The notes: generated by a model from the sequence alone, not told the origin. 64,000 bases of DNA from Candidatus Woesebacteria bacterium (GCA_016432365.1 CP066686.1:410906-474905); one strand, 5' to 3'; counted from the first letter of the stretch, positions 6,581 to 23,788 are shown. Numbers and translations are program-made.

Positions 6581-7151
6581 GACTGCCAGAACACATAACG
6601 CATTTGCTTTTGCTTCTCTTGTAACAGCGGCTGCTTATTTTCCTCCGACTCACTTAAATTTATCTACCCTGATTCTTGGCATTGTAGGAACGGATATTGG
6701 GGCATTGATTCCGGACATGGATACCGGTGGAAATTATTTGTGGGGGCTTTTGCCGCAAGGCCAGAAATTGGGCGGTTTTTTAAGACGAATATTTTACAAA
6801 CACAGAACGATTACACATTCGCTGTTGGGACTATTTTTGATTTTTAAATTTTTTGCCTGGCTACTTCCCAGGATCTTTAATTCAACTTTTATTGACCCGC
6901 AAATAATTCTTGTGAGCATCATGATTGGTTTTGTTTCGCACCTTATTGCCGACAGTTTTACAGAAGAGGGAATTCCGCTTCTTTACCCGATTCCTTTGAC
7001 ATTTGGAATTCCTCCGATCAAAAAAGTAAGAATTAAAACCGGCCACTGGTTTGAAAATTTTGTAATTTTCCCCGGCATCTGGATTTTCCTAATTTGGTTT
7101 GTAAACATTCATAAAGACATCTTTCTTCAAATTCTCCGGGGGTTAATTTGA
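6579..7151 (+). CDS. DUF457/YdjM-like membrane-bound metal-dependent hydrolase.
   Basis: 190 aa polytopic protein with the conserved His/Asp pattern (HSLLG ... SHLIADSFTEEGIPLLYP) typical of the YdjM family. Confidence 0.5.
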   Translation: MTARTHNAFAFASLVTAAAYFPPTHLNLSTLILGIVGTDIGALIPDMDTGGNYLWGLLPQGQKLGGFLRRIFYKHRTITHSLLGLFLIFKFFAWLLPRIFNSTFIDPQIILVSIMIGFVSHLIADSFTEEGIPLLYPIPLTFGIPPIKKVRIKTGHWFENFVIFPGIWIFLIWFVNIHKDIFLQILRGLI

Positions 7152-7183
7152 TATACTTTCGGTATAGACTACAGAATATTGTT

Positions 7184-8464
7184 ATGGAATATGATAAATC
7201 TTCAGTAAAAAATTCTGAAGTGGACGCTCGTATCCAAGAAGGCGATATTGTTATTTTTCTTGAATCACAAGGAACAGTTGATGGCAAACCTTCAGCGGGT
7301 ACGACCTCTGCTCAGATTTCTTTAATCCATCAGCTACACAGGGATGGGGATAAGGTGATTCTGGCAGATGTCGGCGATAACAATCTAAACAATTTTATCG
7401 TTCCTGGTTCAAGTATTGGCTACGTAAGAACTTCGGAATTGGTACCATTCAGAACTGTGGCCGATGGTGCTTTTGTGCCGGGGGATGAAGAAATAGAAAA
7501 AGAAGAACCTGTGAGTATTAGGATAGGAAAAAAAGATGGTTCAGCTTATATGGTTGATGGTATTTGTAAAGGATACGATTGGCATATAGATGGCTACAGA
7601 GTATCTGTTAAAAACGAGGAAGGGTTAGAAGCTATGCTGCAAGTTGGCAAGGATAATGTCGAAATTAGAAAAGATTCCACAATAGAAGATTTTACAGAAT
7701 TTTGGCTTGAACATAGTAAAAAACGTCCGCCTTATCCTAGTACATATGATAATTCTCAGGTCATGCAGATAGTTAGCCGTGAACCGGAACTCATAAAGAA
7801 ATATTTGCCTATGATTAAAGAGGCTAAAGATGTTTATAAAATATTGGAAATTATCGACAAAAATCCAATGGTTGCACACAAATTATTTGATATTCTTACG
7901 GAAATACCGGAGTTAATAGATGTTTATGCTAAGTTTGCTCTACGTGTGCCTTACTTGTATCAAAATGCAGAAGAGGGTAGGGAATACCACTCGGAACCTA
8001 CCCGGATATCAACCTCCCCCGACCCAGAATTTATAAGAAATAAACTTAATAATATTAAAGAAATCGAACACAAGCTGGAAACATATTTAGAGGGAAGAGA
8101 ATATGCCATAATAGCTGAACCATTGGATGGTTTAGCATTTGTCAGTATTGTTCCGATAAAAGGTAGATCGGGTACAGACGGGGTTTCTATACTGATAGCA
8201 CCCGGGAAGGGAAATGATTTTGTGTCAGTAGCAATTCGAGTTTTTTCTAACGGCACCGTTGATTCGGGTCTAAAGTATAACGATTGGTATGATCTGGGTT
8301 ATATGTTTAAAGAGAACCCGGCAATCGATGAAGAGGAGTTTTTAAATGCTCTGGTTAATAATGTTCCAATGTCAGATGAAATGAATCTGGCTTTGGAAAA
8401 AAGTGGAAGGTCAAATGGTAAACATGGTAAATTCGAAAGACTTGTTCTGCGGAGCGAAGAATAA
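7184..8464 (+). CDS. Hypothetical protein. ORF-track start 7148 is 36 nt upstream in frame.
   Basis: Long ORF, acidic and soluble, no recognised motif. Overlaps the upstream gene by 4 nt if 7148 is used. Confidence 0.45.
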   Translation: MEYDKSSVKNSEVDARIQEGDIVIFLESQGTVDGKPSAGTTSAQISLIHQLHRDGDKVILADVGDNNLNNFIVPGSSIGYVRTSELVPFRTVADGAFVPGDEEIEKEEPVSIRIGKKDGSAYMVDGICKGYDWHIDGYRVSVKNEEGLEAMLQVGKDNVEIRKDSTIEDFTEFWLEHSKKRPPYPSTYDNSQVMQIVSREPELIKKYLPMIKEAKDVYKILEIIDKNPMVAHKLFDILTEIPELIDVYAKFALRVPYLYQNAEEGREYHSEPTRISTSPDPEFIRNKLNNIKEIEHKLETYLEGREYAIIAEPLDGLAFVSIVPIKGRSGTDGVSILIAPGKGNDFVSVAIRVFSNGTVDSGLKYNDWYDLGYMFKENPAIDEEEFLNALVNNVPMSDEMNLALEKSGRSNGKHGKFERLVLRSEE

Positions 8465-10068: not shown

Positions 10069-10326
10069 CTATTCTTCAATAATATCTGTAGCGTTAAAAT
10101 ATCCTGAATTGAAGTTTTGGCTTAAGTTTTCAAGGAAAATTTTTCCGTCCTTCGGAAACACCTTTTCTGGTGTTTCTGCAGCGTAATTTATAATGCCTTC
10201 ACTGTTCAGATTTGCGACAAGACCGCTGTCCCCGTCACATTTAACAGAGTTGTTTTCAAGCACGCAAGTACAAATCACTTTCTGTGACCCGTCATTTTCC
10301 AGTTTGTATATTAATACTTTGGCCAT
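10069..10326 (-). CDS. Hypothetical small protein, 85 aa; last gene of a 3-gene minus operon.
   Basis: ORF overlapping the upstream gene by 16 nt, which suggests translational coupling. Confidence 0.4.
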   Translation of the reverse strand: MAKVLIYKLENDGSQKVICTCVLENNSVKCDGDSGLVANLNSEGIINYAAETPEKVFPKDGKIFLENLSQNFNSGYFNATDIIEE

Positions 10327-11120
10327 ATTGATTCCGTCGATCCAGGATGATAAGTAAAATCATTCATATCGTCCCAGCTAATTTTACCGCGAGCAAGAAA
10401 TTTGTTTGCTTGATTAATTCTGGCAAACATTGCGTCAATTGTTTTGCCCGGAACAAGTTCTTCTAAAGCCTCTCTTAACCTGTTTTGCTTTTCGTCACTC
10501 GTTAGAAAACTGTCATACTGTTTTGCTAAAGTAGTTGGGATGAGTCTGCCTGCTACCATTTTTGATAAATTCTCGGGTATCCATCCTCGGAGCCACTCGT
10601 TGAACGAAACCCCATTGTCAATTGCAATAACCCGACGGTCTTTTATAAATAAGTTTTCCGGTTTCCTGTCTTTATTCCAGACAACATAGTCGAAAATAGC
10701 GATTTCAAACAACTGGCCCCTTACAGCTTCTTTTTCCCCGTCTCCAGTTTCCCTAAGTGTTCGTTTTGGATCCGGAATAAAATCCTGAATACTCCCCTCA
10801 GCCCCATTGATTGTTCTAATTATTGTAGGGGGAACAAGTCCCGGGTGTAGTGCTTTTGATACAAGATATGCGGCCCGTTCCCTTTTATATAACAAACGAT
10901 GCGATTCGGGAAATTCCCATAAGGTGTCTTCACCCCTGCCCGGTTTAAAAACTCCATTTCCATCCCCTCCAAAATATATCAGCTGTACGATATTACTTCC
11001 CCCAATCAAATTTTTTGTTCTACCCTCATCAATAGGAAGAGTTAAGAGTTCCGTTTCTCTTGAGTCTGAAATAGCTAGTATGTCGGGATTTTGAGGGAGA
11101 TCTCTTGGGAGCGCGTCCAT
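10311..11120 (-). CDS. Protein-kinase-like fold protein (atypical, ePK/PI3K-like catalytic motifs).
   Basis: NKDRKPENLFI resembles the ePK catalytic loop HRDLKPEN. IAIDNG lies 17 residues later in the position of DFG. A Gly-rich stretch GGDGNGVFKP is near the N-terminus. Confidence 0.5.
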   Translation of the reverse strand: MDALPRDLPQNPDILAISDSRETELLTLPIDEGRTKNLIGGSNIVQLIYFGGDGNGVFKPGRGEDTLWEFPESHRLLYKRERAAYLVSKALHPGLVPPTIIRTINGAEGSIQDFIPDPKRTLRETGDGEKEAVRGQLFEIAIFDYVVWNKDRKPENLFIKDRRVIAIDNGVSFNEWLRGWIPENLSKMVAGRLIPTTLAKQYDSFLTSDEKQNRLREALEELVPGKTIDAMFARINQANKFLARGKISWDDMNDFTYHPGSTESIWPKY

Positions 11121-11126
11121 TTAAAT

Positions 11127-11630
11127 TTACTTTCCTTCTCTTTTTTCTCGGGATTTTTCTACCAATTCTCTTATACCATTACGCTGAAGAGCAAGAAGTT
11201 TAATATTGCCATCAGAGCTTAGTCGAACTCTTTCAAAAGCCCTTACAAATTCCATGTCACCCTGTATCCTAATAAGTTCATCTACATCTGAGGGCAAATC
11301 GGAACCACACCAAGAGTCCCTAATTTTATCAAAAACCTCCCCAGTCATTACCTGAGGTCCTGCAATTGCCCTGAGAAGTACTGAAAAAACAGGGTCAACA
11401 TTTCCGCGAAAATTAACATCGCCCCTCATCAAATATTCCGGGGTCAACTCGTCCATGTGGTCGCTCATAACGGTAATGTATTCTTTAACCACCTCATCCG
11501 CTCTATCTTCCCACTGCGATGGAGTTGCATCCCAACTCAACCTATTCATAAATCTATTGAAATGCCTGTCAGCTAGGGTTAACTTGTCCAGAAAAGAATC
11601 TTGTCTGCTTTCCTCGTAAAAATGATCCAT
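11127..11630 (-). CDS. Hypothetical protein, 167 aa; first gene of the operon.
   Basis: ATG lies 8 nt downstream of a TTGACA-N17-TAGATT promoter, so the transcript is leaderless. Confidence 0.5.
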   Translation of the reverse strand: MDHFYEESRQDSFLDKLTLADRHFNRFMNRLSWDATPSQWEDRADEVVKEYITVMSDHMDELTPEYLMRGDVNFRGNVDPVFSVLLRAIAGPQVMTGEVFDKIRDSWCGSDLPSDVDELIRIQGDMEFVRAFERVRLSSDGNIKLLALQRNGIRELVEKSREKREGK

Positions 11631-11667
11631 TGATAATCAATCTAAAATATTCAATTTCGAATGTCAA
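11631..11667 (-). promoter_or_regulatory. Sigma70-like promoter TTGACA-N17-TAGATT for the 11630-10069 operon.
   Basis: rc of 11662-11667 = TTGACA. Two TTCGAA palindromes in the divergent intergenic region may be operators. Confidence 0.4.
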
Positions 11668-11721
11668 GATCTAATAACCATCGGTATTCACAAATACTCA
11701 ATTTGTCAGATTCGAAACTTC

Positions 11722-13986
11722 TTGACCGTTAAGTGGAAAAAGATGTTTAAAAAGAATAAAATTCTAATTGCTGGTAATAAAAAAATGGAAACAAGACTAC
11801 CTGTACGAGATCGAATCATTCCCAGAACGCTTGATGTGTTGACTCAACCAATTCGAAGCGGTTTGGATTACGGTTTGCATAAAGTTACGCGTGGTAAATA
11901 TAAGGCCGATCTCGAATTATATTTCGGCCCCCATGAACACAAGTCAGAGATTGATAAAGGTTTACATGATACTGCGCAGGTCCTTACCGACATCGATGAA
12001 AAACTTGCGGGTGGGAGCGAATTCATAGGCGATAAGTTTGAGGTTTGGAAAAAGGTAAAAACCGAACTGGAGGATCATGTTGGCTTAAAAATAACCGACC
12101 AAGTTTTGATAGACCGGAAAGGTGGCAACCATGTTCTATTTGCAGAAAAGGACGACAAAATTGTCCCCATATTTCTATCGGGAGTATCAACCGAGGGCGA
12201 CACGAGAAGTCTTTTTGGCATCGGCAATGAGTATCCAAAAGAAGCAAATACCTCAGAGAACGTAGCCAGAGAATTGACAATATTCAAAATAATGGAGGCC
12301 GAGGCCTTAGAACCGGAAAATTATAAATTGAGAAAGGTTGATTCGGTTGCAAATGATTTTGAACTACGGAGGCATGCACTTTTTGAAAGAGAAGGTGATG
12401 AGTTTGAAGCAATAAGAGCTCAAGGCGCCCTAAGTATAGGCGAGCTGCAAACTGTTTCCAGGCTTTTGCTTTTTGGGGGAATAACTTTTGAAGAAGGAGA
12501 AGTAAGAACAAGTCCGTCACTTGAAGACATTTGGATTAAAACAAGGATGATCTCCATGGGCGAAAATGTGGATACAAAAACAGCTCAGGCAGTAGCTCAA
12601 AAAGAAATTGCTCAATTCGCTAAGGAGGTCGTTTATTTTCGTTTGGCCCAACAATATTTTGTAGAACACCCCGACGTGACCAGAGAATTTATGAAATCGG
12701 AATACTACCTCCAACATCGAAAAGATTTTATAAATTCGCATCTTGCTGCCCGTGGCCAAACGGAAGAAAAAATTGCCGAAGCTATGCTTGCGAATTATTG
12801 TCTTGCAAGGTTCGAAAAAACAGACATAGAAAATTCTCCATCCCAAAAATACATTAAGGATAAAGAAGGCTTCATGGGGGATATTGACAACTTTTTGACA
12901 GGTTTGGGTGTCTTTGTCCCGGGTGAAATTAGAGATTTAGCTACAGAGCTAAAAGGAGCCTTAGTCAATAAAGTTATAAGCTACAATCAAAGATATGTTG
13001 CCCTGGCCGAGGCCAAACGATCTTTAGAGAAGGTTGCAAATGAAATATGGCGCCACAAAGAAACACGGAAAATATTTGATCGATTGGTACAGCTGTCTCC
13101 ATTTGATTTTGTCGATGATAAAGAAAAACCGGTAAAAGTATTCAGAGTGATTATTGGTAATTTAGGTCTTGCCAAGGTTCCAGGTGAGGGTAAATTCACA
13201 ATGTCGAGCTATTTACCAAAAGTTCCATATTATCCGGAAGGCAGTGAGGTTTTGCCGTTCGATCCCGAAAAGGCAAGACACGCAAAAATTATCGATTCGA
13301 TAAAGTGTATATTTGACGGGAGTGTTTTGCCGCCAAGCGGTTCTGGTGAAAAGGCTAGCGCATATGAATCTCAGGTGACGAGAATTTATACGGAAGGAAC
13401 CACGATTTTAAGATTTTTGACTGAAGATCCGAGAATCCCTGATAACGTTAGGGAATTTGTACAAGCAATAACAAGCGACAATCTTGGCCAAAAAATTCTG
13501 GAACGTTATGGTCCGGTTAGCGATCAAGATCCTCAAATAGTCAACAGGTTTTTTAAAGACGGCTTCGACCGTTTTCAGACAATGATAACCCATCGTTATG
13601 TCACCGATTTTGTTAGAGGAGTCGAAACAAATTTAATACTTCTTACGGGGGGCACAGGGGATAAAGTAAGCAGGCAATTTATGGGGGATTGGAAGAATTT
13701 TGATTTTTCTCAATTACCGGATGAAGTTGTAGATAAAGCGATTGAGATGACACTCGCGGACGGCAAACACAGACTTGAGCTACTTAACCATGAGACGTCG
13801 GAAAGAACAACGCTAAAAGATAAGCAGGAACTTTTGGAAAAAGTTTTCGGTTGGAATACTTACGATATGTGGTTTTTGAGATGGGAGAAATTCTGGAATG
13901 TTTGGAATACTTTGGGGGGCGCTTGGGACTGTATATGTTTTATGAGAAAACCGATATTTAACCCTGGCACCATCAAGCAATTTTGA
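11722..13986 (+). CDS. Large hypothetical cytoplasmic protein, about 750 aa; start uncertain (11722 TTG, 11743 ATG or 11782 ATG).
   Basis: Long ORF divergent from the kinase-like operon. No P-loop or other recognised motif. Confidence 0.55.
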   Translation: MTVKWKKMFKKNKILIAGNKKMETRLPVRDRIIPRTLDVLTQPIRSGLDYGLHKVTRGKYKADLELYFGPHEHKSEIDKGLHDTAQVLTDIDEKLAGGSEFIGDKFEVWKKVKTELEDHVGLKITDQVLIDRKGGNHVLFAEKDDKIVPIFLSGVSTEGDTRSLFGIGNEYPKEANTSENVARELTIFKIMEAEALEPENYKLRKVDSVANDFELRRHALFEREGDEFEAIRAQGALSIGELQTVSRLLLFGGITFEEGEVRTSPSLEDIWIKTRMISMGENVDTKTAQAVAQKEIAQFAKEVVYFRLAQQYFVEHPDVTREFMKSEYYLQHRKDFINSHLAARGQTEEKIAEAMLANYCLARFEKTDIENSPSQKYIKDKEGFMGDIDNFLTGLGVFVPGEIRDLATELKGALVNKVISYNQRYVALAEAKRSLEKVANEIWRHKETRKIFDRLVQLSPFDFVDDKEKPVKVFRVIIGNLGLAKVPGEGKFTMSSYLPKVPYYPEGSEVLPFDPEKARHAKIIDSIKCIFDGSVLPPSGSGEKASAYESQVTRIYTEGTTILRFLTEDPRIPDNVREFVQAITSDNLGQKILERYGPVSDQDPQIVNRFFKDGFDRFQTMITHRYVTDFVRGVETNLILLTGGTGDKVSRQFMGDWKNFDFSQLPDEVVDKAIEMTLADGKHRLELLNHETSERTTLKDKQELLEKVFGWNTYDMWFLRWEKFWNVWNTLGGAWDCICFMRKPIFNPGTIKQF

Positions 13987-14519
13987 TGAAGTTTTTTAAA
14001 AGATACACGAAAGTTTGGGGGATATTAATTGCTGTATTAATTTCCCTGTTAATTTTTATCTTCCGGGACAAGCTTGCCGGCCTTCAGACTTATGGCTTTT
14101 TTGGTCTTTTCTTGCTAAACATAGTTGGTAGCGCAACATTGTTTTTACCCACCCCACTTTTTTTATCGGCATTTGTTGCTGGTTCAATTTATAACCCAAT
14201 TTTAGTGGCAATAGTAGCGTCAGCCGGTTCGGCTATTGGGGAACTTACCGGGTATCTGGCCGGTTATGGGGCGGAGGATATTTTGGAAAAAGACATAAAA
14301 GTCCAAAAGATTAAAGGGTGGATGAAAAAGCGAGGCTTTTTGACTCTTTTTTTGTTGGCGGCAATTCCAAATCCGGTATTTGACATGGCTGGGTTTGTAG
14401 CCGGGGCAACAGATGTTTCGGTTAAAAAGTACCTAATCGCTGTTTGGTTGGGAAAACTTGTTAAATTTTCTGTGATATCGTATGCCGGAGCGAGCTCGCT
14501 GGCATTATTTGGAGTATAA
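13983..14519 (+). CDS. DedA/YqaA (SNARE-associated TVP38) family membrane protein.
   Basis: Conserved pattern LPTPLF ... G..IGELTGYLAGYG. Confidence 0.6.
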   Translation: MMKFFKRYTKVWGILIAVLISLLIFIFRDKLAGLQTYGFFGLFLLNIVGSATLFLPTPLFLSAFVAGSIYNPILVAIVASAGSAIGELTGYLAGYGAEDILEKDIKVQKIKGWMKKRGFLTLFLLAAIPNPVFDMAGFVAGATDVSVKKYLIAVWLGKLVKFSVISYAGASSLALFGV

Positions 14520-14526
14520 TCTGGCC

Positions 14527-14769
14527 ATGAGTGAAGCCCAATTTGATCCGGACAAAATCAGATTAAGTTTAATAAATGATGCCTATAAACGTGGCATGAG
14601 ATATGGACAGATAACCCCAGATATGCAGATTGCACAGTGGATGGCAATCGGTTTAAAACGTTTGGAAGAAGGTAAAATTCTTACATCCGAAGCATTGGAA
14701 GCTATAGACAGAATGGGCGGAACCGATCACCCCGATCCGTTTATCGATCCCCGAAGGAAATTAATCTAG
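14527..14769 (+). CDS. Hypothetical small protein.
   Basis: ORF only; the ORF-track start 14482 overlaps the upstream gene. Confidence 0.3.
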   Translation: MSEAQFDPDKIRLSLINDAYKRGMRYGQITPDMQIAQWMAIGLKRLEEGKILTSEALEAIDRMGGTDHPDPFIDPRRKLI

Positions 14770-17299: not shown

Positions 17300-18472
17300 G
17301 TGAACGAAAGATTTAGAGTCAACTTGTTTGACTGTACCAATTGCGGAACGACCAAGATCTATGCATTTCTTCACGAATGTCCTGGTTGCGGAACCCCGAA
17401 TCCTGGCCAAGGTCATTGGTATCCTGGGCCCTATGTGACTGATATCAAAATGTTGCAGCTTGCGGCCAAAGAGCCTTTTTGGAAGTGTTCCCATTGTGAA
17501 GGATCAAACTTCGGAGAAGACAAAAGCAAGGGCTGTCAGCATTGCGGACATGAATACGACCCGAGCGATATCAGCGCAAAAGTTATCCCAGGCGGAACCA
17601 GCCAAACGAACGCTCCAAGGCGTCCGGCTGTGCACGATTCGTCCTATTATGTTCCTGCCGATCTTCCCTCACCCAAGGTCGTTCATTCCAGCCCGAGTTA
17701 TCAGCGGAGCATGGTCAGTTCGCTGCCTAGTTACAAAAGTAGCGGCAGGAGTGGACTGAGGCTTGACGGACAGACGCTTGGAATTGCGGCAGTAATCTTG
17801 GTGATAGTTGCTCTTTTGGGGGCATTTTTGTTCGCCAAGTTTCACACAACTGCACACAATGCTGAGTTTACTGGGCCTTCTTGGACGCGGTCATTCGACG
17901 TTCAACGGTTTGAGGTTGTACATGAATCAGACAGCACATCCAACCCTCCAGCTTCGGCCTACAACATAGATTCTTGGGTTACCACTGAAAAAAAAGAGGT
18001 GACACGGTCGGAGGAATATACAGTTCCAAAAACCTGCCACCATAGTGAAGATTTGGGCAATGGATTTACTCGCGAATGGGACGAAGACTGTAGTTATACT
18101 GCTACAAGACAGGTCTTTGATCACTACGATTACATCGACACAACTCACTACAGTTACGATCACAATGAGTGGGTTTTTTACCGGACTATCAGCGAGAGTC
18201 GAGACAACTTCGAGCCGTTTTGGCCTGCTTACAACCTAAATCTGGAGGGCCAGACTGTTCTCGGCGCTGAAAGAGCGGTGAATTATCGTGAAACCTACAC
18301 GCTCAAATTCGATTGGTACGATAAAGATGAAACCAAATTTACGGCTATTTATAAGGTTTCTGAGGCCGAATGGCACCAGTATGTTGTTGGTGAGTACTAT
18401 CCGATCGAAGTAAATAGCCTGGGTGAAGTCAGGAACAATCCTCTTCAGGATAAACTTAACCCGCCGGAGTAA
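17300..18472 (+). CDS. Double zinc-ribbon membrane protein with an extracytoplasmic C-terminal domain.
   Basis: CxxC...CxxC twice (CTNCG...CPGCG; CSHCEG...CQHCGH), then a Pro/Ser linker, one TM helix and about 200 aa outside. First gene of the higher-GC island. Confidence 0.55.
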   Translation: MNERFRVNLFDCTNCGTTKIYAFLHECPGCGTPNPGQGHWYPGPYVTDIKMLQLAAKEPFWKCSHCEGSNFGEDKSKGCQHCGHEYDPSDISAKVIPGGTSQTNAPRRPAVHDSSYYVPADLPSPKVVHSSPSYQRSMVSSLPSYKSSGRSGLRLDGQTLGIAAVILVIVALLGAFLFAKFHTTAHNAEFTGPSWTRSFDVQRFEVVHESDSTSNPPASAYNIDSWVTTEKKEVTRSEEYTVPKTCHHSEDLGNGFTREWDEDCSYTATRQVFDHYDYIDTTHYSYDHNEWVFYRTISESRDNFEPFWPAYNLNLEGQTVLGAERAVNYRETYTLKFDWYDKDETKFTAIYKVSEAEWHQYVVGEYYPIEVNSLGEVRNNPLQDKLNPPE

Positions 18473-18609
18473 ATCTCTTGAAGCTTTAGTTGAACCTTGG
18501 GACTGGAAAGTCAATTTGTCGATCTTTGACACGTTGATACTACCAGTCCCTGTTTGTTTTTCCCCATAATTTTTAATTTTAAATTATTAATTATAAATTT
18601 ATGTTTCAT

Positions 18610-18647
18610 CCCATAGCTCTTGACTTTTTCTATTTTTCTGGTATACT
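18610..18647 (+). promoter_or_regulatory. Sigma70 promoter cccatagctcTTGACT-N16-TATACT.
   Basis: TTGACT 18620-18625; TATACT 18642-18647. The long leader carries the aacatcttgagattc motif at 18721-18735. Confidence 0.45.
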
Positions 18648-18778
18648 TGCCTCACGTCTTTTGACTGGGAAACCGGTCAGTTTTTTTGCGACTGGGATTT
18701 CAGTGTAAAAAGTGAACATTAACATCTTGAGATTCAAAGATAGTTAAAACATTTCAAAAAGGTTCAAGGAGGAACCAA

Positions 18779-20482
18779 ATGAATAAGCGAAACAGATTCT
18801 TCAAAATCCTGTTTGCAGTGGCGGCCATCATAGCTGTCACAGTTGCCTGCGGTGGTGGATCTGGTTTGGCGACCGATAATGGCGCTTTGCGCATTGTTGC
18901 CGACCCCACCATTCAACTTCTCGATTCCAACGGAATTCTTTCGTCGTGCGGCGTGCCGTACACGATCGAATACCTTGGATCCGTGGAGATGAAACTGAAA
19001 GTCCAGGATTATTCAACAAGTAATCCAGGCGATGTGGACGTCTTCTGGGCCGCTAGTCCAATTTGGCTTCCCGGCAGTTTTGTGGTTAACAAAACCCCAA
19101 TCATGGGCTCGTATGTCGTGTTTGGAGTTAACCCGAATATTGCCTCGCAGTTCGGTTGGAACCCGGTCAATGGCGTCTATTTCAACAACATCATGCAGGC
19201 GTCAAACTCCCGTGCGTTATCATTGGGGATAGCTTCGGCTTCACAAGATGACGCGGCCGCTAATTTCAATTTAGCGGGGCTTACGGCGCTTAAAGGTACC
19301 GGTGAGCCGTTGTATGCTGAGGACCTGGGCAATCCGGCGATTACCGATCCGATGAAGACTTTCTACTCGAACGTCTCTCTCGGATCCAATCATTCCGGCG
19401 ATCTGGCTACGAAGTTTGTTGCGGATCAGTTGTCCGGCAATCCCCAACTCAACAGTTTTGTACTGCCTGAGGCGATGGCCATTTCGGTTAATCAGCAGTT
19501 GACTGCCAAAGGCGCAAGCCCGATGACTGTCTTCTATGTTAAGGACGCGGTCGGTCTGCAAAGCTTTACCATGGGTTACACCAAGGATTCAAGTGATGCC
19601 AAGCAGGAAAGTTTCAATACGCTTGTAAAGTGCTTGACCTCTGCCGATACACAGAAGAAGTTACAAAACCTTGGTTTCCGTGCCGGTGGCGTTGGTATGA
19701 AGATCGAAAATCCCAATACTAGCGTTTTCAATCCCGCTTGGGGATTCGATGGTACGGCGGAATATCTTACCGTGAATCTTCCGAAGTTTCCGGTGATCGA
19801 AACCGCCCTCAACACCTATCAACTTGCGTGGAAAAAGCCGTCTTGTACTGTCTATGTTTTGGATTTTTCTCCATCCATGGACCCTGATGGGAGAGCTCAA
19901 CTCCTGGCCGCTATGAAGCTTTTGCTCGGCCCGGATGCAGCCAAGTACACTCTGCAGACAGGACAAAATGATTCGACTTACGCTGTTACTTTTGCGGATC
20001 GAATCTTGTCGCAGTACTCTGTGAGTGGCAACGATGCCGCCAGTTTGTATGCGGAAACGCCAGCTGATCAACTGCGATATGCACCGAACGACGCGAAAAA
20101 AGAAAATCCGCTCAATCCTTACGACGCAAATTCGCTCTTTGGAAAGATCTACTATGAACCGTTTGGTAACGCAACAGACATTTATGGATCCGTTGTTTAC
20201 GGACTTCAATTGGCTGTTCAGAATTGCAGAGCGGATCAGCTTCCAGCGGTTGTGTTTCTTACCGACGGTGAGCGTACTGCCGGGCCCAAATATTCGTATC
20301 TTAAGGATTTTGTGAATGATAACAACTTACAGATCCGTGTGTATGCGATTTTGATGGGCGACGCGGATGAAGGGGTTTTGGCTGAGATCACGGCACTTAC
20401 CAAAGCAGGCGAACCTTGCGATGGCCGTACAGGAGAAGACGCACTTGTGCGTTGTTTCCGCAATATCCGAGGCAGTAACTGA
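18779..20482 (+). CDS. Lipoprotein with a C-terminal von Willebrand factor A (VWA) domain.
   Basis: Signal peptide plus lipobox-like AVTVAC. MIDAS motif DFSPSM (DxSxS) and the downstream LTDGE motif. The N-terminal 330 aa shows weak similarity to ORF 20500-21603. Confidence 0.65.
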   Translation: MNKRNRFFKILFAVAAIIAVTVACGGGSGLATDNGALRIVADPTIQLLDSNGILSSCGVPYTIEYLGSVEMKLKVQDYSTSNPGDVDVFWAASPIWLPGSFVVNKTPIMGSYVVFGVNPNIASQFGWNPVNGVYFNNIMQASNSRALSLGIASASQDDAAANFNLAGLTALKGTGEPLYAEDLGNPAITDPMKTFYSNVSLGSNHSGDLATKFVADQLSGNPQLNSFVLPEAMAISVNQQLTAKGASPMTVFYVKDAVGLQSFTMGYTKDSSDAKQESFNTLVKCLTSADTQKKLQNLGFRAGGVGMKIENPNTSVFNPAWGFDGTAEYLTVNLPKFPVIETALNTYQLAWKKPSCTVYVLDFSPSMDPDGRAQLLAAMKLLLGPDAAKYTLQTGQNDSTYAVTFADRILSQYSVSGNDAASLYAETPADQLRYAPNDAKKENPLNPYDANSLFGKIYYEPFGNATDIYGSVVYGLQLAVQNCRADQLPAVVFLTDGERTAGPKYSYLKDFVNDNNLQIRVYAILMGDADEGVLAEITALTKAGEPCDGRTGEDALVRCFRNIRGSN

Positions 20483-20499
20483 AGAAAGGAAATTATACA

Positions 20500-21603
20500 A
20501 TGAAGCGAAACCAACTTTTCATTGTCGGTGCGGCCCTGATGCTACTGGTCTTGGTGGCCATCGTGGTTGTACCGAATGTTTTCAAGACAACCCCCAAGAC
20601 TACAATCACGTGTCTGGGCGGACAAGTCTTTTTGGCCGATGAAGGTATGCAACAGCGCCTGCTGGATGAGTACAACATCGAGGTCAAATACGTTTCCTCC
20701 GGATCCTTTGAAATGAAGGATAAAGACCTGACTGGTATTGACTGTGCCTGGCCCGGAAGCGCCCCAGCGGCAGCCGATTTTGTCAGTGCGCACAAGGACA
20801 TCGTGCTTAAGAAAGATACGATGTTCCGTACGTTCAACCTGTTCTTCACCCGCAAGGATCTGGGCTACGAAGATGCTTTTATCAAAGCAGGTTACGTTTA
20901 CCAGAAAGACGGAGCCGACTTTATGCCCATGGCGCCCATTATCGAAGCCATGAAAGCTCACAAGACATGGGAAGAAATTGGCGTTCAGGGCGTGCCGGGA
21001 TTCGTGAATATCAAGTATTCTGCCCCGGAATCGTCTGGCGGCGGTCTGCAGCACCTGTTCTTGCTTTGCAGTTACCTTATGCCTGGCGGTGAGAACGGCG
21101 GACTTCCGTGCGATGCTGCAAATTTGGGCCCCGTATTACCGACTCTGGTTGACAACTGGAATTTCCAGGGTGGGCAGACCGGCTCAAGTCCCGAGTGGTT
21201 CAAGGCGTGGCTGCAAAACAGCAGGAGCCTTCCTTTGGGAGCAAGTTCAGAAAGTCTATTCCTGGGCTACTACAATCAATTGCCTGCCGATCAGAAAAAG
21301 GCTGCACTGGACGACATCGTCGGTATTTATTCGGAATGGACGATTGGAACTGACCATGTCTTCATCGCGATTACACCCAACGGTGTGAGACTGCTGGAGA
21401 TTTTGCAATCGGATCCATATTTCGCCCAGCGTGCATGGGATGCCTATGGTATGCGCACCGCATTCGGTGGCCTTGGCGCTAAGCCCGGACAAACGGATGT
21501 TCCTTGGATCGTCGCAGAGCCGCTTGCAATAAGCGAGCCCAAGCAGGATGCTACACAAATGATCACCTGCGCGATCAATCCCGCGAAATGCGCACCCAAG
21601 TAA
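20500..21603 (+). CDS. Signal-anchored extracytoplasmic protein, possible paralog of the N-terminal domain of the VWA lipoprotein.
   Basis: N-terminal TM/signal. YVSSGSFEMKDKDLTGIDCAWPGSAP resembles YLGSVEMKLKVQDYS...DVDVFWAASP in 18779-20482. Confidence 0.5.
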   Translation: MKRNQLFIVGAALMLLVLVAIVVVPNVFKTTPKTTITCLGGQVFLADEGMQQRLLDEYNIEVKYVSSGSFEMKDKDLTGIDCAWPGSAPAAADFVSAHKDIVLKKDTMFRTFNLFFTRKDLGYEDAFIKAGYVYQKDGADFMPMAPIIEAMKAHKTWEEIGVQGVPGFVNIKYSAPESSGGGLQHLFLLCSYLMPGGENGGLPCDAANLGPVLPTLVDNWNFQGGQTGSSPEWFKAWLQNSRSLPLGASSESLFLGYYNQLPADQKKAALDDIVGIYSEWTIGTDHVFIAITPNGVRLLEILQSDPYFAQRAWDAYGMRTAFGGLGAKPGQTDVPWIVAEPLAISEPKQDATQMITCAINPAKCAPK

Positions 21604-21770
21604 GTTGAATCTCAAGATTTAGTTTTACGGCGACCGCGCTGACATTTAGGCCATTAATTTGGTAAAATGTCAGCCGGTCGCCAGATTCATTGAGTTCAGA
21701 AATCATTTCTGGATTCAAAAATCATATTTTTGCACGTTAACATCTTGAGATTCTAAGAAAGGAGTAGCTC
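21604..21770. repeat. Structured intergenic repeat element E1.
   Basis: Contains gaatctcaagat (21607-21618), ttttacggcga, a 19-bp inverted repeat (21629-21647 / 21665-21682), a cagaaat-c-atttctg hairpin (21696-21711) and aacatcttgagattc (21739-21753). Homologous to E2 at 23789-24019. Confidence 0.55.
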
Positions 21771-22394
21771 ATGAGCGATGATTTCAAAGAGAAAGTGGCA
21801 GCTAACGCCGGCATTATTGCCATCGTGTCCGCCACGATCATGTTTTTGATTTCCTATTTGGTGCTCAGTAACGTAACACAAGGGAACTGGTTGAAGTCAC
21901 TTGTAGTGGCAGCGGTTTTCTTTGGTGTTACTGTCTTGGGCGTCTGGTTGATGGCAAGCCAAGTGGTTGATGCCTATACTCTGGACGCGGCAGACAACAT
22001 CGGCGACGTGAACAACCAGTTGAAAAGACTGCGTGGTTACGCGATGGAAATCAAAGATCCTGCGGTTAAAGCGATTCTTGGCAAGATCAGCAAGGATACC
22101 GTCGCACTTGTCAAATTCACCCGTAGACACCAACCATCGTCATTGCTGTCGTGCGCGACCGTGCTTGAAGCATGGTTTGAGATGATTATCAAAAACGCGG
22201 CAAAATGTGCTGAGGTTGGACAAGAAACGGATTACTTCAAGAATCAAAGTGCGATCTACAAAACTGCATTGAAAGGATTTGAAGGCTTCGATCAATTTTT
22301 GATCAACAGCATAAATCTAATCACTGCAGGTTCCGATCCTGAATTTGAGGCCAATTCCAAGATGCTTGACGCATCGCGGTTCAACCTGATCTAG
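21771..22394 (+). CDS. Two-TM protein with helical C-terminal domain; candidate XpaC-like (5-bromo-4-chloroindolyl phosphate hydrolysis protein family).
   Basis: Two N-terminal TM helices plus an alpha-helical cytoplasmic domain, immediately upstream of a candidate TelA-like gene. Called from architecture and neighbourhood only. Confidence 0.4.
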   Translation: MSDDFKEKVAANAGIIAIVSATIMFLISYLVLSNVTQGNWLKSLVVAAVFFGVTVLGVWLMASQVVDAYTLDAADNIGDVNNQLKRLRGYAMEIKDPAVKAILGKISKDTVALVKFTRRHQPSSLLSCATVLEAWFEMIIKNAAKCAEVGQETDYFKNQSAIYKTALKGFEGFDQFLINSINLITAGSDPEFEANSKMLDASRFNLI

Positions 22395-22483
22395 TTAGTC
22401 GAAGTGCGGCTAGGTCGACACATCCAATTTTCAAGAATTCGAGCTAAAACTAGCTCGTTTCTATTCATATCTAAGGAGATAAA

Positions 22484-23788
22484 ATGAACGTTGATCCCAA
22501 CAAACCCGGTTTGTCAGTTGATGTCACCCCTGTTCCAGTCGCCCCCGCAACGGATGTTCTGTCCAATGTGGCGAGTGCGCCAAATGGTCCTCAGGGCGTC
22601 GTGGCTCGTGACCTTCTGGACGGTAAAGCGCAGATCAAGGCCGACAGAGAAGCGGAAGGCGACTTTGTTGCCCTTTTCGAAAACGCCGAAGCGCTTACGA
22701 ATTACGGCAACACCGAACTCGAGCCGCTCAACAAGCTGATCGACGACGCTGCCGCGCAAATTCCCCCAGTCGTCATCCCTGAACTGCAGGCCAAGATGGG
22801 CGAATTGCATCGGGATATGCGCAAACTTTCCGGCAAGTATGACATGGGCAATCCCAAGGTCATCGCCTGGGTTCGCGATTCCGTGGCTGGCATCAAGCGG
22901 GGCTGGTTCACCGGAGAGTCCATCTTTGATGCCATCCTCTTCGATGCGAAGAACACTTACCAGAAGCTCGACACGGTCAAGGCTGTTGTCAAGCCGAAGG
23001 AATTGCAGGCTGTCAAGAATGTTGGGCTGTTGGACACTTTCTATCGTACCAACGATTCGGAAATCCTGGCCCTCATCTATCGCATTGCGGTTATGGAATC
23101 GATCCAAAGCCTCGGCGAGGCTGCCGCGCGCAACATCAAAGCGGATCCCGGAAAGCCCTCGGATCAGCCTTTGATCACGAAGCGCAATTTGTTGACGGAG
23201 TTCGCCAACAACATGTCGCTGAAAAGTTCCAGTTTCAAAGGCCGCCTGTTCCTTGGTTGGGCAAACGGTCCTCAGTTGATCACCAAGCGCACGTTGAACC
23301 TTTCGCTCGCCGTTCGCTTGAACATGATCACCAACGTTTCCCTCCCGAGCGTCAAATTCGCGGTCGAACAGTGGGAACTGGCGATTCAAATGCAACAACT
23401 GGCCAGCATCATCGAGTTGACCGAGAATTTCAACAATGAAGTTCTGACCCAGGCTGCCAAAGCCGGCGCTCAGGTTGCCGCTTACGTTGTTGATACGACC
23501 CAGGCCCCTGCCTTGCGCCCGGAGTCCATCAAAGCAATCGCAGACGCCATTGCTTCCCAGGCTGACGCTACCGCTCAGGCATACGTGCTTGGCCTTCAAC
23601 GCCGCCAGGAAGCCGATAAGGCAATCTTCGATTCGCAGAAGCTTATCGCCAATTCACAGAACAAGGTTTCGGACGCGTTCTTGAACAAGGTGATCGCGAA
23701 TGCGAACACGGCACGCCAAGTCGCCCGCAACGAGCAAAACGAATTGCTCGCTCTGGCGAAGCAGGTTCCCGCGGCCGCCGCTGCGTAA
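22484..23788 (+). CDS. Candidate TelA/YaaN-family (toxic anion resistance) protein.
   Basis: 434 aa, predominantly helical, Ala/Gln-rich C-terminus. Its size and pairing with an XpaC-like gene match the conserved xpaC-yaaN arrangement. Not verified by alignment. Confidence 0.45.
   Translation: MNVDPNKPGLSVDVTPVPVAPATDVLSNVASAPNGPQGVVARDLLDGKAQIKADREAEGDFVALFENAEALTNYGNTELEPLNKLIDDAAAQIPPVVIPELQAKMGELHRDMRKLSGKYDMGNPKVIAWVRDSVAGIKRGWFTGESIFDAILFDAKNTYQKLDTVKAVVKPKELQAVKNVGLLDTFYRTNDSEILALIYRIAVMESIQSLGEAAARNIKADPGKPSDQPLITKRNLLTEFANNMSLKSSSFKGRLFLGWANGPQLITKRTLNLSLAVRLNMITNVSLPSVKFAVEQWELAIQMQQLASIIELTENFNNEVLTQAAKAGAQVAAYVVDTTQAPALRPESIKAIADAIASQADATAQAYVLGLQRRQEADKAIFDSQKLIANSQNKVSDAFLNKVIANANTARQVARNEQNELLALAKQVPAAAAA

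Follow-up and report, generated by a model that had tools for sequence, protein, structure and literature searches.

A stretch of 64,000 nucleotides from a Candidatus Woesebacteria metagenome-assembled genome (Patescibacteria or candidate phyla radiation, CPR; Microgenomates group), referred to here as the window (GCA_016432365.1, CP066686.1:410906-474905, part of a 1.08-Mb contig), encodes a 269-aa protein that is a stripped-down bacterial relative of the eukaryotic type II phosphatidylinositol (PI) 4-kinases (PI4KII). Its gene, on the minus strand (10311..11120), is the core of a two-gene module whose second gene (10069..10326, minus strand) codes for an 85-aa partner protein. The favoured reading, to which we give a probability of about 60 %, is that the kinase is active and soluble and has the 85-aa protein as its substrate or subunit. 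An earlier note on this DNA had described four open reading frames (ORFs), those of 85, 269 and 167 aa on the minus strand and one of 754 aa on the plus strand, and all four are indeed present. The NCBI entries for three of them (HYV90_02445, 269 aa; HYV90_02450, 167 aa; HYV90_02455, the 754-aa ORF) each read “hypothetical protein”.

That the 269-aa protein is kinase-like is not new as such, since Pfam already picks up the domain: PF00454 (PI3_PI4_kinase) matches residues 139-222 with 28.6 bits against a gathering score of 27.1 (E=1.6e-6), and most homologs carry a precomputed PF00454 annotation. The match to NCBIfam TIGR03843 (89.1 bits) lies below the curated cut-off of 172.4. A profile made from 36 family sequences retrieves PI4KIIbeta and PI4KIIalpha from the PDB at E=1e-17, Fam20A and Fam20C at about 1e-12 and Vps34 at 2e-3. 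The AlphaFold2 (AF2) model built on the same 36-sequence alignment (predicted local distance difference test, pLDDT, 86.8; predicted template modelling score, pTM, 0.87) folds like a kinase: its N-terminal part contains a beta-sheet, and its C-terminal part is helical. The Foldseek ranking for this model is headed by PI4KII structures (E~7e-9, TMq up to 0.64); Fam20/Golgi casein kinases come next and PI3K/Vps34 third, with a probability of 1.00 for the structures of all three groups. Fam20B/xylosylkinase-type relatives occur among both the profile and the fold matches, and TkArkI among the fold matches.

The idea of a compact atypical kinase with PI3K/PI4K-type catalytic spacing, put forward in the earlier note, is thus borne out by sequence, profile and predicted structure. 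The lack of a kinase fold had been named beforehand as what would refute it, and the model not only shows this fold but is matched best by type II PI 4-kinases. In contrast, the likeness to HRDLKPEN, the catalytic loop of the eukaryotic protein kinases (ePKs), turned out to be peculiar to this one sequence: K153, P154 and E155 vary among homologs, and a search with the Pkinase hidden Markov model gave no match to the 269-aa protein at E<=1. The family belongs to the PI3/PI4-kinase branch (PF00454), not to the ePKs, and its nearest characterised relatives are the eukaryotic type II PI 4-kinases, followed by the Fam20/Golgi casein kinases.

The active-site motifs can be placed by aligning the CPR profile with PI4KIIalpha (4hnd_A). 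The motifs quoted in the earlier note are all there, namely NKDRKPEN (residues 149-156), DNG (168-170, with 17 residues from D151 to D168) and GGDGNGVFKP (51-60), but the glycine-rich loop had been misassigned. GGDGNG (51-56) sits in the predicted beta2-beta3 turn, while the counterpart of the PI4KIIalpha G-loop is G40-G41-S42-N43 (10992..11003, minus strand, as for all sites of this protein), where GGsN pairs with QGSSGSY. In the AF2 model these residues lie between the predicted strands E36-38 and E45-50, and N43 is Asn in 23 of 25 CPR sequences and in 34 of 34 from the other clade. The predicted ATP-binding lysine is K59 (10944..10946), assigned by conservation and by the pairing of vFKP with VFKPK; the helix carrying E81 follows (YkRERAAYLv with YLSEAGASLVD). 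The catalytic loop N149-K-D151-R152-K-P-E-N156 (10653..10676) aligns through DRkseN with DRGNDN, and the DFG-equivalent D168-N169-G170 at the start of the activation loop (10611..10619) through aiDNGlsF with AIDNGLAF.

K59, E81, D144, D151, D168 and G170 are invariant across 36 homologs and N149 and R152 nearly so, N149, D151 and R152 being conserved in both the CPR clade and that of the Actinomycetota and Chloroflexota. Position 156 separates the two, with Asn in all 24 CPR sequences that have a residue there and His in all 34 sequences of the other clade. As for the KPEN and DNG residues, whose conservation had been proposed as a test, the catalytic Asp, the Asn and DNG are kept in homologs, while K-P-E is not. 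In PI4KIIalpha, the K152A substitution abolishes activity (PMC3974213), and this K152 is taken to be the lysine of VFKPK that aligns with K59. Because K59, E81, D151, R152, N156, D168 and G170 are conserved, and because K59 aligns with the lysine taken as K152, the 269-aa kinase is predicted to be catalytically active, and probably is.

The kinase gene is linked to the 85-aa gene. When the proteins of the window were compared by tblastn with 87 loci in a survey of partner-gene linkage, the 85-aa gene (36-59 % identity) was found directly downstream of the kinase gene, in the same orientation, in 16 of about 23 CPR loci, and these come from several candidate phyla; three of four divergent 85-aa homologs that were looked up likewise sit directly downstream of a kinase gene. 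The two reading frames overlap by 16 nt in the window, the junctions elsewhere, where the start is unambiguous, lie between -16 and +20 nt, and the 85-aa gene is probably translationally coupled to the kinase gene. No fusion of the two was found. The linked CPR loci otherwise contain housekeeping genes with no relation to the pair (PNPase, CTP synthase, LepA, DUF2207), and the kinase and the 85-aa gene therefore constitute the unit. The same co-occurrence check does away with the four-gene cluster as a conserved unit, as only these two genes are conserved together across Patescibacteria. Pairwise identities of the two proteins correlate (r=0.62), and the small protein is the more conserved one in 97 of 105 locus pairs (46.7 % versus 34.2 % identity).

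The 85-aa family is well delimited. An exhaustive phmmer search of 1.84e9 cluster representatives gave 98 matches at E<=1e-3, about 95 of which are small stand-alone proteins, mostly of 80-90 aa. Matches of the 85-aa query in three very large proteins (P0157, P0170, P0178) were discarded as chance similarities to beta-rich regions (Ig-like, RCC1 and PKD repeats). The conserved positions include Q15, C21, G32, G44, P58, D60, G61, F64, L68, F72, S/T74, Y76 and A79. The AlphaFold model, built on an alignment of matches from the representative library, reaches a pLDDT of 96.6; in it, a three-stranded meander is followed by a helix, two short strands, two short helices and one last strand. Foldseek searches of the PDB (best E=0.45) and BFVD gave nothing significant for this fold, and the sequence has no match in Pfam, NCBIfam or the PDB; nor was a DNA-binding domain or helix-turn-helix found in it. 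Just before the last predicted strand lies S74-G75-Y76 (10099..10107, minus strand), with Ser or Thr at position 74 in 57 of 65 family members and Tyr at position 76 in 62 of 65; from this conservation, it may be a phospho-acceptor or interaction site.

Relatives of the kinase were collected by a scan of species-representative genomes with a CPR-only alignment. They occur in Staskawicz-, Davies-, Sung- and Zambryski-bacteria, Paceibacterota, Parcubacteria and metagenome-assembled genomes labelled Saccharibacteria, and also in Chloroflexota and Actinomycetota. In a neighbour-joining tree the CPR sequences form a clade separate from the Chloroflexota/Actinomycetota (TIGR03843) clade, and the 85-aa gene occurs throughout the former; the two-gene module appears to be ancestral to its Patescibacteria clade. 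Three loci whose records are titled “uncultured Gammaproteobacteria bacterium” (L008, CAYMDS010000034.1; L011; L018) have kinases inside the Patescibacteria clade. The 85-aa gene is present in two of them, L008 and L018, and the GC content is about 38-42 % in all three, which makes the record labels look unreliable. A set of 50,697 phage records is all but free of the kinase and has no match to the 85-aa protein, and on plasmids only actinobacterial SCO1664-type kinase genes were seen. The single weak phage match (MT835969.1, 2358-2780; 33.6 % identity over residues 57-174) comes from an unannotated 14.9-kb “Bacteriophage sp.” contig from human faeces and could be a fragment that was binned wrongly or, alternatively, a rare copy carried by a phage. 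A defence-system or phage origin of the module was considered and dropped, there being no meaningful PADLOC or PHROG matches.

Linkage, probable translational coupling and correlated divergence together indicate a stoichiometric pair of kinase and 85-aa protein. In the mechanism that we propose, ATP would be bound through the G40-N43 loop and K59, the latter probably positioned by E81; D151 and N156 would carry out phosphate transfer and D168 would bind the metal. The kinase would act together with the 85-aa protein, which might be either a dedicated phospho-acceptor, with S/T74-G-Y76 as the candidate site, or a subunit that presents the substrate or regulates the enzyme. Since S/T74-G-Y76 is conserved and the small protein as a whole is highly conserved, these two roles are the most economical ones. 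A parallel is offered by the sister clade TIGR03843, which is linked to the small soluble protein DUF3090 and a His_Phos_1 phosphatase. Homology, fold, conservation of residues, linkage of the genes and correlated divergence of the two proteins are shown; from these we infer activity, physical interaction and the nature of the substrate. A bolder version is put forward only tentatively: the pair might be a previously undescribed, Patescibacteria-wide phosphorylation switch, in which an insertion-free kinase of PI4KII/Fam20 type phosphorylates, or is gated by, a dedicated 85-aa protein of new fold. If this were true, the kinase would be a stripped-down prokaryotic form of the kinase core from which the eukaryotic type II PI 4-kinases and Fam20 kinases were elaborated.

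Other readings of the pair differ mainly in what is phosphorylated. The kinase could act on a small molecule, a metabolite of inositol, sugar or cofactor type, and the 85-aa protein would then be an accessory or a carrier subunit instead of a phospho-acceptor. The kinases of the sister clade sit with a His_Phos_1 enzyme, from a family that mostly acts on small phospho-metabolites, and the fold matches include compact superfamily kinases with non-protein substrates (e.g., TkArkI), in addition to the Fam20B/xylosylkinase-type relatives found by profile and fold alike. Moreover, an invariable linkage of SCO1664, from the sister clade, to the mycothiol gene mshC has been reported (PMC4255298). However, the CPR pair has no metabolic gene as a consistent neighbour, the CPR clade departs from TIGR03843 at N156 (His there) and at DNG (DHG there), and a strictly co-inherited partner more conserved than the enzyme would be unusual for a simple metabolite kinase, so that we regard this possibility as doubtful, though worth keeping in mind. 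A genuine PI (4-)kinase, acting on inositol lipids scavenged from a host membrane or within it, seems distinctly improbable. It would agree with the type II PI 4-kinases being the best sequence and structure matches, with the PI4KII-type DRxxxN and DNG motifs retained by the CPR clade, and with the dependence of Patescibacteria on exogenous lipids. Against it stands the architecture of the protein, which is acidic and soluble, with neither hydrophobic segments nor a signal peptide found. In PI4KIIalpha the PI pocket and the membrane interface are formed by the palmitoylation, RK-rich and I3 insertions together with the activation loop (PMC3974213). All three insertions are absent here; as the protein has none of the insertions from which PI4KII builds its membrane anchor and PI pocket, membrane PI is an unlikely substrate. 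Neither Woesebacteria nor their hosts are known to have PI. The nearest structural neighbours of PI4KIIalpha itself are protein kinases, namely CtkA, Golgi casein kinase and actin-fragmin kinase (PMC3974213), and the fold therefore leaves the class of substrate unfixed.

Two further readings concern the module rather than its substrate. A selfish toxin-antitoxin-like or HipA-like module, in which the small protein neutralises a toxic kinase, would account for the tightly overlapping bicistron of kinase and small protein and for flanking genes that differ between genomes; HipA-type toxins belong to the same broad kinase-fold group. HipA-like CtkA is, as just mentioned, cited among the structural neighbours of PI4KIIalpha (PMC3974213). 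Yet the small protein has no DNA-binding domain, the module matches nothing in HipA, PADLOC or PHROG, it is nearly absent from phages and plasmids while being spread throughout the CPR clade, and the roughly 6-12 kb read around each copy contain no second kinase gene. Antitoxins generally diverge faster than their toxins, the opposite of what the 97 of 105 pairs show, which leaves this as the least credible of the readings considered. An obligate signalling or effector system made up of all four genes (85, 269, 167 and 754 aa) is unlikely too. All four are adjacent in the window and at least three in locus L007; they are adjacent again, in a different, colinear order, in L008, a more distant relative, and a neighbourhood kept despite rearrangement suggests a functional link. 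But homologs of the 754-aa protein in L004 and L006 have no kinase within 8 kb, the 167-aa gene of L005 lies about 5 kb from the kinase, and the 754- and 167-aa families were not found outside a narrow lineage whereas the kinase-85-aa pair is widespread. The large proteins beside distant kinase homologs are unrelated, and none of the four proteins has a secretion signal.

The kinase and its 85-aa partner thus remain the favoured unit, and the two other genes fit best as additions to it. The 167-aa protein (11127..11630, minus strand), encoded by the first gene of the minus-strand operon, and the large divergent protein (11722..13986, plus strand, maximal ORF) are accessory components restricted to a Woesebacteria-related lineage. 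The statement of the earlier note that none of the three partners carries a recognisable domain was confirmed by domain and profile searches, the 754- and 167-aa proteins having no match in Pfam or the PDB; like the other two, they have neither a signal peptide nor a transmembrane segment. The 754-aa ORF exists as described, but 754 aa is only its maximal length. NCBI annotates 747 aa, homologs of 731-737 aa align from about M22, and the true start is probably internal, at the ATG at 11743 or 11785 (protein of 733-747 aa). Only four homologs of it were found in 5.8e9 sequences, plus the one in L008, and the 167-aa protein has about five (P0081, P0082, L005, L007 and, distantly, L008). Large unannotated neighbours of distant kinases (612 aa in L001, 837 aa in L003, and others) were rejected as 754-aa homologs after negative tblastn, hhalign and hmmsearch comparisons, and several of the large neighbours proved to be housekeeping genes (PNPase, CTP synthase, LepA, DUF2207). 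A 180-aa gene upstream of the L003 kinase was rejected as a 167-aa homolog.

Gene order varies among these few loci. In the window the 167-aa, kinase and 85-aa genes run on the minus strand, divergent from the 754-aa gene. L007 has the 167-aa gene followed by the kinase gene on the minus strand, again divergent from the 754-aa gene, and its contig ends before any 85-aa gene becomes visible. In L008 the order is kinase, 85-aa, 167-like and 754-like, all on one strand, with identities of 41 % for the kinase, 33 % for the 754-aa and 24 % for the 167-aa homolog. L005 has kinase and 85-aa genes about 7 kb from the 754-aa gene, and its 167-aa homolog elsewhere; the 754-aa homolog of L004 lies in an FKBP-754-VTT-...-TGT synteny and that of L006 in a different context. 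This pattern suggests that the association of the 167- and 754-aa genes with the kinase pair is real but facultative.

The surroundings were also compared. Between 9537 and 16596 the backbone of the window (FKBP - 754-aa homolog - VTT/DedA - ... - TGT - LytR_C) is syntenic with L004 and L005, and the three-gene minus-strand operon (167, 269, 85) is placed between the genes for FKBP and the 754-aa protein. Between VTT and TGT the window has only a 95-aa ORF (14482-14769), and the DUF1761 and PBP genes of L004 and L005 were not detected there. Farther on, Pfam matches nothing at E<=1e-4 in five consecutive plus-strand ORFs (17300-23788; 390, 567, 367, 207 and 434 aa). Located between the LytR_C and RF-1/PCRF genes, they lie in the GC-richest part of the window (0.45-0.51 versus about 0.40); L004 likewise has unannotated ORFs between its LytR_C and PCRF genes, which are set beside those of the window by position only. 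A 438-aa ORF upstream of an EamA transporter gene (7148-8464, plus strand) has no Pfam or NCBIfam match, and tblastn (E<=1e-2 or lower) found no relative of it near kinase or 754-aa homologs in the fetched loci.

Of the overlapping stop and start signals mentioned in the earlier note, the one at the 269/85 junction is real, while the stop of the 167-aa gene is separated from the ATG of the 269-aa gene by 6 nt; a GAAGGA Shine-Dalgarno-like run precedes this ATG. The promoter proposed there corresponds to a sigma-70-like match (TTGACA, 17 nt, TAGATT; 11639..11667, minus strand) that agrees with the consensus at 10 of 12 positions, is the best in the region and lies just upstream of the start codon of the 167-aa gene. 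Promoter-like sites are no more frequent in the region than by chance (6 seen against 9.0 +/- 2.9 expected in shuffled sequence), and it is by consensus match that this one is proposed. The match ends 8 nt before the ATG, from which the transcript would have little or no leader. The two TTCGAA palindromes of the intergenic region (11656 and 11711) are present as well, but an operator role was rejected. In the window the hexamer is scarcer than expected (17 sites, where dinucleotide-preserving shuffles give 34 +/- 6 and each of 100 shuffles had at least 17), and it is missing from the intergenic region of L007, the one relative that shares the divergent arrangement. The scarcity of TTCGAA (e.g., at 11656, 11711 and 11852) could reflect restriction-site avoidance. 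Rfam and tRNA scans of the window gave no matches.

Patescibacteria account for much of bacterial diversity, and their genomes are very small; a two-gene module retained in many of their lineages is therefore probably important to them. A minimal kinase core with PI4KII-type motifs could serve as a simple, soluble system in which to study the catalytic core of both type II PI 4-kinases and Fam20 kinases, and its presence in Patescibacteria bears on the origin of both eukaryotic groups. The 85-aa family, well defined and with a confidently predicted fold but no known relatives, gains from its strict linkage to the kinase a testable role as substrate or subunit, which would give meaning to two “hypothetical proteins” at once. 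The parallel with the actinobacterial SCO1664/DUF3090/phosphatase locus beside mshC, carried by mycobacteria, suggests that an answer for one of the two systems could help with the other. What is new here is the CPR clade, its insertion-free architecture and the conserved 85-aa partner, none of which was described in the literature searched; on the side of function, the proposals are comparative.

Several known systems resemble the pair in part. The toxin-antitoxin kinases of HipA/CtkA type likewise combine a compact non-ePK kinase with a small protein in a bicistron. The pair differs in that the kinase gene comes first, in the lack of any HipA match, in a partner that has no helix-turn-helix and is more conserved than the kinase, and in showing no enrichment on mobile elements. 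A 2026 preprint on kinase-like domains of the oral microbiome concerns a different family, from Bacteroidota. Fam20A/B/C and the Golgi casein kinases (PDB 4KQB, 5YH0, 5WRR) are the second-best group of relatives (profile about 1e-12, fold E~4e-7), both lobes being aligned, yet the Pfam model for Fam20C gives the 269-aa protein only 13.4 bits, far below its threshold of 26.8. Fam20 proteins are enzymes of the secretory pathway, and the corresponding signal is lacking in the 269-aa protein, which has no signal peptide or transmembrane segment.

The closest prokaryotic family is TIGR03843/SCO1664 of Actinomycetota and Chloroflexota, which shares K59, E64, E81, D144, N149, D151, R152, D168 and G170 with the 269-aa protein but, the latter scoring under its cut-off, represents a separate clade. 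Its loop reads DRKxGH...DHG, that of the CPR clade DRxxxN...DNG, and it is the CPR form that is found in eukaryotic PI4KII. TIGR03843 genes also adjoin a gene for a small soluble protein of unknown function, DUF3090. In the sister-clade loci (L032, L037, L041, L047 and others from Actinomycetota and Chloroflexota) the kinase is flanked by His_Phos_1 and DUF3090, and the three families appear to be uncharacterised in the literature searched, where SCO1664 and DUF3090 receive only passing mentions. Neither DUF3090 nor His_Phos_1 phosphomutase-like genes lie beside the kinase in the window or in the CPR loci, where the 85-aa protein is the partner instead; that it might be a reduced DUF3090 was discarded, as the two show no profile similarity.

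The type II PI 4-kinases themselves (PI4K2A/PI4K2B; PDB 4HNE, 4PLA, 4WTV) are the best profile and the best fold match. The 269-aa protein differs from them in being bacterial and soluble, in having an 85-aa partner without a counterpart in eukaryotes, and in a catalytic domain about 100 residues shorter. The CCPCC palmitoylation segment (about 19 residues), an insertion of PI4KIIalpha, is absent from the CPR profile, and the RK-rich insertion (about 36-42 residues) and the I3 insertion (about 21-23 residues) of PI4KII are absent from the CPR family. As all three are absent, the 269-aa protein is placed, by its sequence, outside the type II PI 4-kinase family. The motifs that the two have in common run from the GxxN/G-loop, the VFKP lysine and the Y-x-x-E helix through (V/I)P(P/R)T and GSxQxF to DY(I/V)xxNxDRxxxN and AIDNGLxF.

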